Assembly: GCA_963666285.1 (NCBI GenBank) | Contig: OY762711.1 | Source of the DNA: Sedimentisphaerales bacterium | Lineage (GTDB): Bacteria > Planctomycetota > Phycisphaerae > Sedimentisphaerales > SM23-30 | Strand: one strand, 5' to 3' | DNA: 64,000 nucleotides | Shown: one piece after another, positions 58,131 to 62,650 of the stretch | Position numbering within the stretch: position 1 is the first letter of the stretch | How the letters are laid out: each line of letters begins with the position of its first letter | The notes under the pieces: model-generated | Seen by the model: the letters and a program-made list of their open reading frames with translations, nothing else | Database searches by the model: none | What the model was told of the DNA's origin: nothing | Translations under genes and position numbers: made by a program

Positions 58131-58676
58131 TCAACGTACTACTTCAAAGCCTTTAAATATCTCTACAGTACTAGTTTGTTTTGTTTTTTTATCAACTTCA
58201 ATCAAATACCCAATTTTAATACCCATCAGAGTATAGCTTTCATTTTTTTCTAAAAGAGGGTCTTTTGAACTATTAAACGTAAAATATTTCGAATAATCAT
58301 TACTTAAGTGTGACAAACAAACTGAATCTCGCATTTCAACTATTGTATTATTGTTTACAGGAACATATTCTTTTCTTGTTATTAAATACCAATTATCTTC
58401 GTCTTCCTGAATTATCCAGTCTTCTAGAGAGACCAAACCTTTCTCCAAATTATTTTGAAATTCTTTTTCACTGTTTTCAAGCAATTTCCTATCTTCTTCC
58501 TTTAAAACCAAACTAAAGTCGGTAATTTCAATAGGCAGTATCTTAATATTTTGGGGGCAATATTTACTATTGATCCCAAATAAAAATGATTTTTTTATTT
58601 GGGATTCATCCTCAGCATTAACATACATTGCAGAAATAATAAGTAATACAGTTATTAAGCTAATACATTTTTTCAT
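58131..58676 (-). CDS. secreted hypothetical protein, candidate Rhs immunity/partner
   Basis: signal peptide, GAGAGG RBS, 17 bp after the Rhs tip, same low GC. Confidence 0.65.
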   Translation of the reverse strand: MKKCISLITVLLIISAMYVNAEDESQIKKSFLFGINSKYCPQNIKILPIEITDFSLVLKEEDRKLLENSEKEFQNNLEKGLVSLEDWIIQEDEDNWYLITRKEYVPVNNNTIVEMRDSVCLSHLSNDYSKYFTFNSSKDPLLEKNESYTLMGIKIGYLIEVDKKTKQTSTVEIFKGFEVVR

Positions 58677-58693
58677 TATATATACCTCTCGAT

Positions 58694-59945
58694 TTAATAA
58701 TCTACTCTAAATTTGACTTCTTGTTTTGTCTTAGGAATTGTTACTGGAATACCTATCGATATAGATATCGAAGTACCAGTTTCTTCATGTACGATAGTAC
58801 CAGAAGAATTATATCTTAAATCTAAATCTCCGTCAGTAATAAAAACACCTAAAGACTTACAGTTAGGGTTAGATGATTTATATGGCATTGCTCCTGGGAT
58901 TTGATCTGGATTATCATATGGTTGTTTACAACAATAAAATTCTCTTTTAATTAGTTTCGCTCTATATTCCACAGTTGTCTGTATTCCCATAAATATATAT
59001 GTTGTGTTTTCATTTATTTTGATTTTGACACCTTTATTCTCTATAGTTCCCCCTTTTGTAGCTGTGATAACTGTATTATTTAAAATAGGCGAATAAGTAC
59101 CTATTGGGTGATAAGGAGTTATCTGAGTTCCACGTGGAACTGATTTTATATTTTTAAAACATCTTTTACATGCTTTTTGCTTTTCTGCAATAGCTTGAGC
59201 TTGTTGCCTAAGTAAATTGTTTAGGTTATTCGATTCCTTATAAATCCTTTTAGAAATCTCAAGCATGTCTTTGTCTGTAAAGCTTGGAGTATATCCCCAT
59301 TTAACATCAGAGACAGGTCTATCATCTTCTTCCTGCCCCGAGGCATACGAATCTAATCCATATATATCAACAAATACTATAACTTTTGATTTTACATATT
59401 CATAAAGATTTAAACCATCAGCATAACCTGAAGGATCATTGGTCATCCATCTACCCAATCGGTAATGATATACACGGTGGCGGTTATGCTGTAATCTCAA
59501 ATCACCATCATCTAGATTATCAACCTCTCTTGCCGTGAACATAAACGGATTGGCAACAGCTGAATTATCAATCTCATTTCCGCTGCCATCATATATCGTC
59601 GGTTCGCCCCAGACATCGTAAGCATACCGTTCGACCACATCACCATCGGCATCAACCAGAGCGACAATTGAGCCGAGGTTGTCAGAGCAGTAGGTAATAT
59701 ACTGCTGAATTGGGATCACCTGAGGTTGTATTATACATCATCACCAGCTCGTCAATTCCATCTCCAAATACAGATTCCTGTTCCAGGTCAGCTTCTGAGG
59801 CATTATCAGTTGCCGCATAAACCACCTGCCATCTATCATTATGATAATATCGAACAATTTTGTCAACATCTTCATTTTCATCATAGAAAACTGCCAAAAT
59901 CCGTCTGCCAAGGGCATCATATTCATATTCATATTCAACCAGCAA
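58694..59945 (-). pseudogene. orphan, frameshifted Rhs core plus variable C-terminal tip
   Basis: YEYDALGRR, DNLGS, Y.YD.WG, NPFMFTARE, GRWMTNDPSG..DGLNLYEY..DIYGL; +1 frameshift near 59690 joins the two ORFs. Confidence 0.85.
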
Positions 59946-59949
59946 AGAG

Positions 59950-60250
59950 AACTAAAAGGGGTACGTCCCTTTTTCTTTATCCGCGCCCATCAGCAGGATT
60001 TAGCGGACAATATTTTTTCGTTCTTTTCGACACCTTCACTTTTCGGCTACGGTCGAAAAGTGCCTGAGTACGAAGCACGTATTTCCTGGCAGCTGACCGC
60101 TGGTAGCTGGTCGCTATTTCGCTGTTTTCTGCCTACCGTGTTTGTCTGTGCCTGTCCGTGACCGTCAGTGCTATATTCCACAATAACACTTTGCGAGCCT
60201 TGCGGCCTCTGCGAGCAACAGTTTTTTTTCGTGTTCTTTCGTGAATTTCG
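59950..60250. repeat. REP-like hairpin / 7- and 9-mer mosaic
   Basis: AAAAGGG-GTACGT-CCCTTTT (59954-59973); CACTTTTCG/CGAAAAGTG hairpin; 60190-60217 is a near reverse complement of 16861-16888; TTCGTG 9-mers. Confidence 0.7.
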
Positions 60251-60322
60251 TGAAAATATGAAGAAAAGGCATCCTAAGGTATAATATATACCAAAACAAA
60301 CTTTTATACGAAAGGATGCCTC

Positions 60323-61354
60323 ATGAACAACATACATTATATTGGAACAGATTTGCATAGCAACAATATTGAGCTGGCAATTCGTTACAGGCAGAAGGTA
60401 ATCCAGAGATATTCTCTGCCGACATCGTTGCCTCCTGTTTTGGAGGTTATAAGCTCCATCAAAGGCAAAAAACAGATGGCAGTAGAGGAAGGCCCCATGG
60501 CAGGCTGGCTTTATCGCGGCGTATTTGGCAAAGTTGACAGGTTTGTAATCGCAGAACCTCGCCGTAACAAGCTGATAAGCTCAGAAGGCGATCATGATGA
60601 TGAAATTGATTCTGCAAAACTTGCAATGCTGCTGGAAGGAGGCCTTTTGAAGGAAGTTTATCATCCTCTAAATAGAGAGCAAGCGGTATTTAAAAAGTGG
60701 GTAACTCTTTACCATGACAATGTTAAGGATGCAGTAAGAAGTATTAACAAAATCAGAGCCTGTTGTCGTATGGAAGCCATAAGAATACCCAGATATGTAA
60801 TAAAAAACCCTGACAAACGTGACAAATGGCTTTCGGAGCTTGAATATACAGACATTGCCGAGCAATTAATGTTGCTGCTTATCGGCTACGATGCAGCTTC
60901 CTGCCAGTGTAGACTTGCCAGGCAAAAAATCATGACTCTAAGTAAATCTTATCCGGTAATTAAGCAATTTCAGGAGCTGCCCGGAGTTGGCATAATACGA
61001 GCAGTAACCTTCTTGGCATATATCGATACGCCATGGAGGTTTAAGAAAAAAAGTCAATTATGGAAATATTGCGGCATTGGACTTGAACGTACAACCAGCG
61101 GCAAAGACAAATATGGCAACTCAAAACCGGCAAAACTTAAATTGCCTTACAACTGTAATCGCACTCTTAAAAATGTAATAATTGGTGCCGCTTTAAGTGC
61201 TATCAGGCAAAAGAATAGTACATATGCCCAGGATTATGAAAGGATGATCTCAAATGGTGTAAATAGATCAAATGCTCGCCATACCGTTGCCAGGAAAATA
61301 CTGACAACTATGTGGGGGATTTGGAAAAGCAGCTTTCAGTATAATACGGATTAA
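60323..61354 (+). CDS. IS110 family DEDD recombinase/transposase
   Basis: IGTDLH, VEEG, DDEIDS (DEDD RuvC-like); LPGVG and YCGIG..TTSG (Tnp domain Ser). Confidence 0.92.
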   Translation: MNNIHYIGTDLHSNNIELAIRYRQKVIQRYSLPTSLPPVLEVISSIKGKKQMAVEEGPMAGWLYRGVFGKVDRFVIAEPRRNKLISSEGDHDDEIDSAKLAMLLEGGLLKEVYHPLNREQAVFKKWVTLYHDNVKDAVRSINKIRACCRMEAIRIPRYVIKNPDKRDKWLSELEYTDIAEQLMLLLIGYDAASCQCRLARQKIMTLSKSYPVIKQFQELPGVGIIRAVTFLAYIDTPWRFKKKSQLWKYCGIGLERTTSGKDKYGNSKPAKLKLPYNCNRTLKNVIIGAALSAIRQKNSTYAQDYERMISNGVNRSNARHTVARKILTTMWGIWKSSFQYNTD

Positions 61355-61414
61355 GATATCGTAATTTATACTCTTTCAAAATATTATGATTTTCTAATAG
61401 TCTTTTTGCATAAC

Positions 61415-61550
61415 AGCAAAGAGTTCCGTTTCAACCACTGGACAGGCAAGAACTTGAACCCGATTCGTGAATGAACCTTTGCTTTTAGACGTGCCTCTTT
61501 TCTTTTTATGAACTGCCCAAAGGGCATGTTCCCAATAGATGGTTGGCAGC
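61415..61550 (+). ncRNA. bridge RNA / seekRNA candidate
   Basis: two stem-internal loop-stem units whose loop strands match the target flanks (TCAACCAC, ATTCGTG) and the circle junction (ATAGATG, TTTTTAT). Confidence 0.7.
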
Positions 61551-61789
61551 ATAATTTAATTTACGGCTATACACAATTTTATAAAAGAATTGACCGAACA
61601 GAAAATTGTAGTTATTGAAAAAATCGCAAAATTACAAAAAAGATATCTATGACATGTACCTGCTGATGCAATAACTTACAACAAACGTATGGATGCCCTC
61701 AAAGTAATTCATTCGAATTAGAAATTTTTTAACTTGACTTTGAGTTCTTCATAGATGGTTGACAATCTTTATCATAATTCTGAATTTAA

Positions 61790-62650
61790 ATATGCGACAG
61801 CTTTAAAGTCGTGAGCGACAGCGAATTATTCCTGATGTCAACGTACATCAGGACACCTCCTTTACACCTTTTATTTTACCCTTTACACTTTGATGCCGTT
61901 TCACGGCACCTGTCTGGTAGGTCCACTCTTCCAGAATAACAACTTACAAAAATACCCGCAAAATCCCCAGCCCGCCGCACTACCACCACAAGCCACCATA
62001 CAGTCGTTCTTATATCCCCTCACCCTTCAATTTCATTCCATTTTTTAACCCATCCTTCACCCCGTCACTCTCACTTATAAATCAATCATCCTCGCCAAAC
62101 CCGTTACCTTCCCTAATACCAAATACCCAACACCTAATACCTTCCTTCACCCCTGAAAACGCTGAGCACAAGCTCGGCACATTATTTAAACAGGTCGCGA
62201 CAGCGACACCTCCACATCATTGGACTTGTCCAATGATGTGCCAGAGTGCGCAGCACGTATTTCCTCTTCACTGACAGCTCGCCGCTGATAGCTCGTTGCT
62301 ATTTCGCTGCTCATCTGTTCTAATCTCTAACGACCTTCCGTCGCTCGGCGTTAGCCGCTTTAAACAAGCCGTCCGCGAAGCGGACACCTCAACTCTTACC
62401 TCTTACCTCTTACTTATTACCTACATTCGCGTCTCCGCTCCGTCCCCGTGTTTGGGCTTTCGCACCCATTCAACGTTCCGCCGTATACTGTCCGCGGCCC
62501 GCAATTCGCCCCCGTTCAAATCCATTTGCCTTTTCACCGCCGTCCACCCGCCGCGCTGCCCCGTTACCTTTCCGCACACCGTCCGTTACCCATTAATTAG
62601 TCGTCGCGAAGCGACACCGCAATTCTTCACTCTTCACTCATCGTTCTTCA
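61790..62650. repeat. REP-like hairpin / heptamer mosaic, opposite orientation to the 16-18 kb mosaic
   Basis: hairpins GTCGC-GACA-GCGAC, GTCCGC-GAA-GCGGAC, GTCGC-GAA-GCGAC and CCTGATGT..ACATCAGG, each followed by ACC or ACACC; TCTTACC, AATACC and TTCACTC runs. Confidence 0.7.

Follow-up and report, generated by a model that had tools for sequence, protein, structure and literature searches.

RNA-guided recombinases of the bridge kind have been known since 2024. In the bridge RNA of IS621, the bottom-strand guides are of the 7+2 form and those for the top strand are of the 5+2 form followed by two handshake bases; the first of the handshake bases was seen to covary, and recombination is blocked when that base is paired with its own DNA (PMC11208158). 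The top strand is cut between positions 9 and 10 and the bottom strand between 9* and 10* (PMC11208158). By our calculation from these sites, the base that pairs with the fifth guide letter has the cut on its 5' side on either strand, and the two cuts are 4 nt apart. A fifth-base cutting rule is also described for TIGR-Tas (PMC12045711). In elements of the IS1111 type, the inverted repeats are set in from the ends, by 7 bp on the left and by 3 bp on the right (PMC11187229), and they are usually 11–13 bp long, a range of 7–17 bp being given in PMC11208160. The reversed order of the guide matches (PMC11187229) and predicted donor loops (PMC11208160) have already been published for IS1111 RNAs, and the seekRNA paper raises the questions of whether IS1111- and IS110-type elements move in the same manner and what role the long RNA plays (PMC11187229). 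The terms target guide, donor guide and handshake are used here as in these and related studies (PMC11187229, PMC11208160, PMC11208158, PMC13626964, PMC12045711, PMC13604230; 10.1101/2024.06.21.599552, 10.1101/2025.10.25.684509, 10.64898/2026.08.31.748434, 10.64898/2026.01.12.699009, 10.1101/2025.05.14.653916).

The present work concerns an element located in a stretch of 64,000 nucleotides (referred to as the window) from contig OY762711.1 of a Sedimentisphaerales bacterium. A first-pass annotation of the window, made from the sequence alone, had flagged 136 bases, beginning 60 bases behind a recombinase frame, as a bispecific bridge or seek RNA with decodable guide loops. The results presented here indicate that a real, correctly decoded bridge RNA is predicted at this locus with near certainty from comparative sequence evidence, and that its guides are arranged in the register of IS621 with the two strands exchanged.

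The Element, Its Copies and Its Landing Sites

The features of the element are listed in Table 1. Under the 7-bp/3-bp convention by which it is bounded, the TG at 61756–61757 is target DNA; if both TG dinucleotides were counted the element would extend over 60251–61757. The source genome contains three copies of it, which differ at one base and whose flanks diverge beyond the junctions, and the side of the TG on which the element ends was inferred from a relative that is considered below. The target common to all three copies is ATTCG/TTTCG-TG-GTT, and unoccupied paralogous repeats reading TTCGTGGTTG, with a single TG, are present 22 times in one contig (C1) of the same genome. Based upon the three copies, their common target and these empty sites with one TG, the element is a site-specific insertion without duplication. 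The "empty site" and "junction" used in the first-pass annotation were reconstructions and not window sequence; the reconstructed empty site proved to be real, as the unoccupied repeats in contig C1 show. The non-coding regions of the element comprise 72 bp on the left and 401 bp on the right.

Table 1. Positions of the element and of its observed and predicted features in the window.
Feature	Position	Strand	Remarks
Insertion sequence, 1505 bp	60251..61755	+	Bounds by the IS1111 7-bp/3-bp convention
Left target arm TTTCG	60246..60250	+	ATTCG in the other two copies in the source genome
Left subterminal inverted repeat ATGAAGAA	60258..60265	+	7 bp inside left end
Conserved TATAAT at left end, possible internal -10	60280..60285	+	46/55 clusters, same offset
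IS110-family DEDD recombinase, 343 aa	60323..61354	+	D10, E55, D93, D96, S259; PF02371
Target-binding hairpin, predicted bridge RNA	61415..61483	+	Outer stem 61415-61426/61473-61483, inner stem-loop 61440-61461
Predicted top-strand target guide, 7+2 (TTTCAAC CA)	61429..61437	+	Pairs with core and target +1..+6
Predicted bottom-strand target guide, 5+2+2 (ATTCG TG AA)	61463..61471	+	AA = donor +1,+2, predicted handshake
Donor-binding hairpin, predicted	61492..61548	+	TGCC/GGCA outer stem, inner stem 61510-61531
Predicted top-strand donor guide	61500..61508	+	Pairs with core (one G-U here) and donor +1..+4
Predicted bottom-strand donor guide, 5+2+2 (ATAGA TG GT)	61535..61543	+	61542-61543 predicted handshake
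-35-like hexamer TTGACT	61734..61739	+	Computed circle junction
Right subterminal inverted repeat TTCTTCAT	61745..61752	+	3 bp inside right end
Target core TG and right target arm GTTGAC	61756..61763	+	Junction comparison

The sequences flanking the element (60028–60250 and 61756–62300) are members of intergenic families that are highly repeated in the genome, where BLAST gives well over 100 matches to them. To the left of it, two frames on the minus strand (58694–59945) look by eye like the end of an RHS/YD-repeat protein whose C-terminus is variable, for which a Pfam search gave no match, and a small secreted-looking frame (58131–58676) lies next to them. No circle junction was found in the assembled contigs of four sequencing runs, assembly contigs being known to drop rare forms, and no relative in the viral contigs that were searched. 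A search of sequencing runs listed no RNA run containing the element. Contig joints that skip the element were considered as evidence of excision and rejected; they are of single-copy depth and were not counted because the paralogous empty repeats explain them.

Characteristics of the Recombinase

The recombinase matches PF02371 with a score of 40.2 bits (cutoff 21.3), whereas PF01548, which is listed for most of its homologues, was not matched in Pfam. The residues D10, E55, D93, and D96 are invariant in 120 homologues, as is G260, and S259 is nearly so. In an AlphaFold model (pLDDT 88) the predicted fold matches that of IS621 over the full length (8wt9, the best Foldseek match; E 4e-14, TM 0.67). 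IS621 and ISCro4 were the top Foldseek matches (E about 4e-14 to 7e-14, TM 0.67–0.69, 15–18% identity), and TIGR-TasR was next. A sequence search of the PDB with the single protein gave no match, and a profile search gave one weak match, 9mty.

The score of this protein against NF033542 (IS110 family RNA-guided transposase), 95.2 bits, is below the curated cutoff of 140; three homologues scored 93–103 and seven other IS110 proteins 213–278. Its score against NF052498, which relates to the Nop-type domain shared with TIGR-Tas, was 40.9 bits (cutoff 100). Among the matches listed, its identity to near-full-length plasmid IS110 proteins was 20–26%. The serine motif reads GIGLERTTSG here and G-I/V-G-L-x-R-x-x-S-G in the clade. 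The proline of the IS1111 motif GL-P----S(T)G was absent in 12 of the 12 clade members examined and present in 9 of 11 reference proteins, those where the motif was found. In an unrooted tree, a long and fully supported branch (100/100) separates the 12 clade members from 11 other proteins of the IS110 family, references that carry no established group labels and include no ISfinder panel; a long-branch warning applies to this tree. By its sequence the protein represents a divergent, long-branch lineage below the NCBIfam cutoff. It would work like a bridge recombinase, with IS1111-type ends, yet it is not filed in the IS1111 group. The description of this recombinase as new holds for the protein lineage and not for the kind of system, and the length of 343 aa, which had been called compact, is ordinary for IS1111-family transposases (330–350 aa; PMC11187229).

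Assembly of the Homologous Loci

A protein search identified 1349 relatives, and 289 clusters at 50% identity were obtained in a profile search with E below 1e-30. The best 80 of 374 metagenome loci were fetched together with one genome locus, and a further 21 loci came from 14 of 401 genomes of the same class, the source genome included; a phylum-wide search added just 2 of 400 genomes. Of these 102 loci, 25 with <44% identity or <200 bases downstream were dropped and 77 were aligned. One of these (L083, G025:C188), which has an intact left end, a protein match to residues 5–311 only and no RNA module behind it, is probably truncated, and the remaining 76 gave 57 clusters at 90% RNA identity. 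The 19 near-duplicates merged in this step include one with a handshake match (L063) and one that is a mismatch by its guide (L029).

The Predicted Bridge RNA

All six of the substrings that had been quoted for the two loops are present at their positions, and the two hairpins constitute the minimum-energy fold of 61410–61555 (−38.1 kcal/mol, z −2.2, with 4 of 200 shuffles as good). Of 3000 dinucleotide shuffles made of the non-coding region, 145, 1755, 242, and 1397 reached the longest words shared between guides and DNA at this locus, and 36 reached three of them jointly; the 8-nt donor match in this test is a different, unconserved word at about 61647 and not the guide. Taken from this locus alone, the guide matches are near chance and make a weak case, and therefore the test had to be comparative.

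When RNAalifold was applied to the 57 clusters, both hairpins were predicted, with a two-sided change in 23 of the 31 pairs and 96.5% of the cells paired. The covariation score of this fold was 0.40, in comparison to ≤0.10 for slid controls, in which pairing was 32–47%. Two-sided changes were observed in 9/11 pairs of the outer helix and 7/8 of the inner helices of the target hairpin and in 6/8 pairs of the inner helix of the donor hairpin; the outer 4-bp stem of the latter was 100% paired, with two-sided change in only one of its four pairs. Both loops are framed alike by CC and UGG/AAC motifs. No relevant family was found in Rfam, and no tandem guide array of the TIGR type was seen in the non-coding region.

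A GATATC-like stem could enclose both hairpins in most relatives (e.g., L005:1175–1479), which also have conserved TTGCC and GTTCA blocks downstream of the hairpins; the stem and blocks together suggest a longer RNA of at least 200 bases. This stem aligns poorly in the present element, whose own branch has diverged there (61355–61361 and 61645–61650).

Target Guides

The assignment of the four guides made in the first-pass annotation is borne out by the comparison across homologues, and to it can be added that both bottom-strand guides extend two letters past the core, where they match the partner DNA. For the top-strand target guide, positions 61435–61430 were Watson-Crick complementary to the right flank at +1 to +6 in 46/49, 43/50, 35/50, 41/50, 41/50, and 28/50 of the clusters, respectively, with 0 of 3000 permutations as good for each position; no signal was seen at +7. 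Its register slips by one base in some relatives (L078, L088, L090, and L095). The letters 61467–61463 of the bottom-strand target guide were identical to the left flank at −1 to −5 in 54, 47, 48, 53, and 42 of 55 clusters, again with 0 of 3000 permutations for each, and no signal was seen at −6 and −7 across the clusters. The match of this guide to the left flank, given earlier as 6 of 7, stands for this copy and becomes 7 of 7 in the other two.

On the target side, where covariation across homologues had been proposed as the check, the guides follow each element's own flanks at 11 positions in total, ending at −5 and +6. The permutations ignore relatedness, and the target letters change repeatedly on the tree, with 15 changes at +1 alone. 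Judged from these sequences, about 11 changing target letters appear to retarget the element naturally among relatives to dispersed host repeats, and the term programmable, as applied to the recombinase, is borne out to the extent of this natural reprogramming only. The last two letters of the bottom-strand target guide, AA, equal the donor in 55/55 and 54/55 clusters, a match uninformative as covariation because AA is nearly invariant.

Donor Guides

The bottom-strand donor guide equals the right end of the element at five positions in 50 of 50 clusters. At one of these, 61539 equals donor −1 in all 50, the A of this element being unique to it in guide and end alike. In the top-strand donor guide, 61504 tracks donor +3 in 55/55 clusters (one clade-level change), and 51/55 have a mismatch opposite donor +1. 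On the donor side, therefore, the guides match and follow the donor changes, but only two of these changes are independent, and the donor loop appears from the sequences to be well matched and less well proven by covariation. The donor guide can be matched to the right junction over 11 letters; this longer match was set aside, as it holds one informative extra base, with no signal at +2 and fixed scaffold at +3/+4. In an all-against-all comparison of 6226 column pairs, the high-scoring pairs with donor +3, −6, and +8 were rejected as single-clade or single-row artefacts.

The Predicted Handshake Base and the Mirror-Image Register

Position 61542, the first letter past the core in the bottom-strand donor guide, is identical to the target +1 base in 43 of 50 clusters, against an expected 27.3 (0 of 20,000 permutations), and in 46 of 55 after the addition of five distant relatives. 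In simulations of independent change on the protein tree, 0 of 20,000 reached 46, the maximum being 43. Among rows with a base other than G at target +1, this position matches in 14 of 17, and it is never A, the donor's own base (0/57), which would be the blocking state in IS621 (PMC11208158). The adjacent 61543 showed no tracking signal (14/50 clusters). The nine exceptions among the 55 include L092 and L095; three loci fall outside this count, namely L089 (without a right junction), L103 (ends unverified, an apparent match), and L104 (a mismatch). Independent-pairs sign tests for 61542 were non-significant (median p 0.125–1), the pairs being too few; in one of them, 1.1 pairs were for and 1.0 against.

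With 7+2 guides for the top strand and 5+2+2 guides for the bottom strand, the register observed here is that of IS621 with the strands exchanged. The tracking base was considered as a new feature, a handshake peculiar to the bottom strand, and this was rejected because the guide lengths are those of the known handshake seen from the other strand. The literature consulted does not, in its text apart from figures and supplements, describe a mirror register or attribute handshake guides to IS1111-type RNAs. Two unrelated IS110-family elements of the source genome (L105 and L106) have the same 5+2+2 register by eye; the target-loop handshake matches the donor in both and the donor-loop handshake matches the target in one of the two. 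L106 (347 aa) is present in four copies (G000:C1 2394701, 1590833, 5026814, and 5746297) and L105 (348 aa) in nine (e.g., 714620–715666 in G000:C1), both with 7/3 ends. Both insert, in the reverse orientation, into the same host repeats containing TTCGTG, a few bases from the site of the present element. One copy of the 348-aa element lies within an apparent CRISPR array with a 36-base repeat and spacers on both sides (G000:C1, about 3248700–3250600).

Element Ends and Promoter-Like Motifs

The element conforms to the published IS1111 7-bp/3-bp end rule. Perfect 8-bp inverted repeats at these offsets were found in 47 of the 48 homologue clusters having both ends, in five sequence types with both sides changing together; a length of 8 bp is under the usual IS1111 range and within the wider one. 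On a circle, the TTGACT near the right end would sit 17 bp before GAAAAT (60252–60257), as a putative junction promoter. TTGAC(T/C/A) is present in 49 of 50 clusters, partly by construction, as the right end was anchored on this motif. The TATAAT at the left end was not called by a consensus promoter scan because no -35 passes.

A left-end arm, GGCATCC (60268–60274), can pair with the ribosome-binding region of the transposase (60313–60321), and an alternative partner for it is the conserved GGATGCCCTC (61691–61700), about 55 bases inside the right end. In 45 of 49 homologues, but not in this element, pairing with the latter is the stronger of the two, and it beats a control stretch in 48/49. 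This pairing possibly forms a switch permitting translation only from transcripts that extend past the bridge RNA; alternatively, the two arms are possibly another pair of DNA repeats that the protein binds on either side of the circle junction.

Core Inheritance and the Proposed Mechanism

In one relative (G136; 35% identity, five copies) the two cores differ: TG is found at 5/5 left junctions and CG at 5/5 right junctions, and the unoccupied sites have CG 47 times and TG 4 times. The guides of this relative fit a CG target and a TG donor. In the same genome, a tandem double insertion of a relative into successive units of a 10-base repeat is seen (L091/L098, G136:C2 851686–857261). In this relative the core at the left junction is thus likely that of the donor, which is what a first cut to the left of the core would produce. 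The prediction regarding the cut side (donor core at the left junction, target core at the right) held in this one relative, and under this model the present element would end at 60251 on the left, exactly 7 bp beyond its repeat, and at 61755 on the right, exactly 3 bp beyond. By analogy with IS621 and from this one relative of 35% identity, we infer that the bottom strand is cut first.

In the mechanism that we propose, the bridge RNA would be transcribed with the transposase, from the left-end or the circle-junction promoter, and would then be bound by the transposase. Each 9-nt guide would place a cut on the 5' side of the base that pairs with its fifth letter, as in IS621. The bottom strands would first be cut just left of the TG (60250|60251 and 61755|61756) and then swapped, after which the last two letters of the bottom-strand guides would pair with the incoming partner (AA with the donor and GT with the target), pulling the reaction toward insertion. 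Any cut of the top strand would be 4 nt further to the right, so that the donor cuts would lie 3 bp from each inverted repeat (AGA|TGAA|AAT). The four overlap letters in the products would come from the strand swapped first, so that 7 bp would remain beyond the left repeat and 3 bp beyond the right one, and the IS1111 end rule would thus be explained by a 4-nt stagger. One-sided inheritance of the core fits the reports that one strand dominates transfer (10.1101/2025.10.25.684509; 10.64898/2026.08.31.748434). We give this full mirror-image mechanism, the chemistry of IS621 with the strands exchanged, a probability of about three in four, its steps being modeled upon IS621. For the broader proposal, that IS1111-type elements including this lineage would use IS621 chemistry on the opposite strand, with a stagger centred between the repeats and non-identical cores tolerated, the odds are about even.

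Among the alternatives, a bridge RNA that is not mirror-image is rather unlikely. Here the top strands would be cut first, and 61542 would either pair with 61435 or grip the right junction in excision. These two bases are complementary in 48 of 57 rows, hence an RNA-RNA contact would give the same signal as a handshake, and circle formation by ISEc11 is described as needing the target flanks (PMC11187229). Further, the base after each top-strand guide can pair at −1 (for 61438 and target −1, 44/55 clusters; expected 40.3, reached in 35 of 3000 permutations). However, the guide lengths fit 5+2+2 for the bottom strand and 7+2 for the top, the cores at the G136 junctions are inherited as the mirror model predicts, and 61470 equals donor +1 in 55/55 clusters, yet 61506, the RNA base with which it would have to pair, is G or C in 51/55.

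It is quite unlikely that the first hairpin is the sole guide, the protein reading the ends via the inverted repeats and the second hairpin being an accessory or a precursor part. This seekRNA model draws upon the 82-nt target-only RNA that is enough for movement of ISEc11 (PMC11187229) and the RNA containing only the target loop that makes up 90% of the RNA bound in CazIS110-1 (10.1101/2025.10.25.684509), and the donor guides vary little in the present family. Against this, the second hairpin is conserved like the first, with the same motifs and a covarying inner stem (6/8 pairs), and it both follows the two donor changes and bears the base that tracks the target; moreover, complete excision and integration by CazIS110-1 needs the full RNA (10.1101/2025.10.25.684509). 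A guide function would be lacking altogether if the matches arose by chance or by copying between the element ends and the non-coding tail. Single-locus matches that are individually at chance level and a fold z-score of just −2.2 would agree with this, but the target arms are outside the element and the loop letters nevertheless track them position by position in dozens of clusters, and copying would neither spare +2 while tracking +1 nor keep the stems by compensatory change, which makes this explanation highly improbable.

Relationship to Known Systems and Implications

The identification of a bispecific RNA downstream of the transposase is upheld by the structural covariation, the target covariation at 11 positions and the IS621-like fold. 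The element shares with IS621 and ISCro4/IS622 (PMC11208160, PMC11208158, PMC13626964; 10.1101/2025.05.14.653916) a predicted fold with DEDD RuvC and serine domains, two simple internal loops, four 9-nt guides, a 2-nt core, insertion into dispersed repeats and covariation of the first handshake base, next to the core, as far as these are described there. It differs from them in a structural-alignment identity of 15–18% and in the position of the RNA, which is downstream of the gene here and upstream in those elements; in comparison to IS621 the guide register is also reversed relative to the gene, the core is TG (CA in the IS621 direction) rather than CT, and the inverted repeats are 8 bp instead of 2–3 bp. 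Compared by description with the IS1111 seekRNA elements ISEc11, ISPa11, ISKpn4, and ISPst6 (PMC11187229), it has in common a downstream non-coding region, a transposase in the range of 330–350 aa, a top-strand match located 5' of the bottom-strand match, 7/3 ends and a predicted junction promoter, whereas its repeats are shorter than the usual 11–13 bp and its serine motif is without the proline. The donor loop here is a simple internal loop, unlike the multi-loop of many IS1111 RNAs (PMC11208160). A two-loop RNA is likewise described for CazIS110-1, and the one-sided inheritance of overlap letters would follow from products dominated by one strand, as in that system (10.1101/2025.10.25.684509). 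A Nop-type domain (NF052498, below its cutoff; 9mty, TM 0.60), guides framed by CC(N)/UG and the fifth-base cutting rule are shared with TIGR-Tas (PMC12045711), in contrast to which there is no repeat array, a single two-hairpin RNA is carried by a multi-copy mobile element with ends, and the catalytic serine is kept. The TG core is not peculiar to this recombinase and is also found in an archaeal IS110-family element on a Natrinema plasmid (L112, NZ_CP082247.1), at the same two places as judged from the inverted repeats only; this element has 13-bp repeats, an ATAGG-TG right junction and a left end starting with TG.

The comparative evidence points to a true donor loop and a handshake base in an element with IS1111-type ends, and the mirror model yields exact predictions regarding the cut strand, the cut position and the tolerance for different cores. 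The bridge recombinases tested in human cells are reported to come from the IS621-like clade, with CT or GT cores (10.1101/2025.05.14.653916), and the clean two-loop RNA of a lineage that is distant from these and uses a different core could, if active, widen the range of reachable sites. If the mirror reading is true, the 289 clusters of this lineage would be an untapped branch, missed by annotation, of two-loop bridge recombinases with a CA/CG core, and the design rules of IS621, when read in reverse, would be applicable to systems of the IS1111 type.
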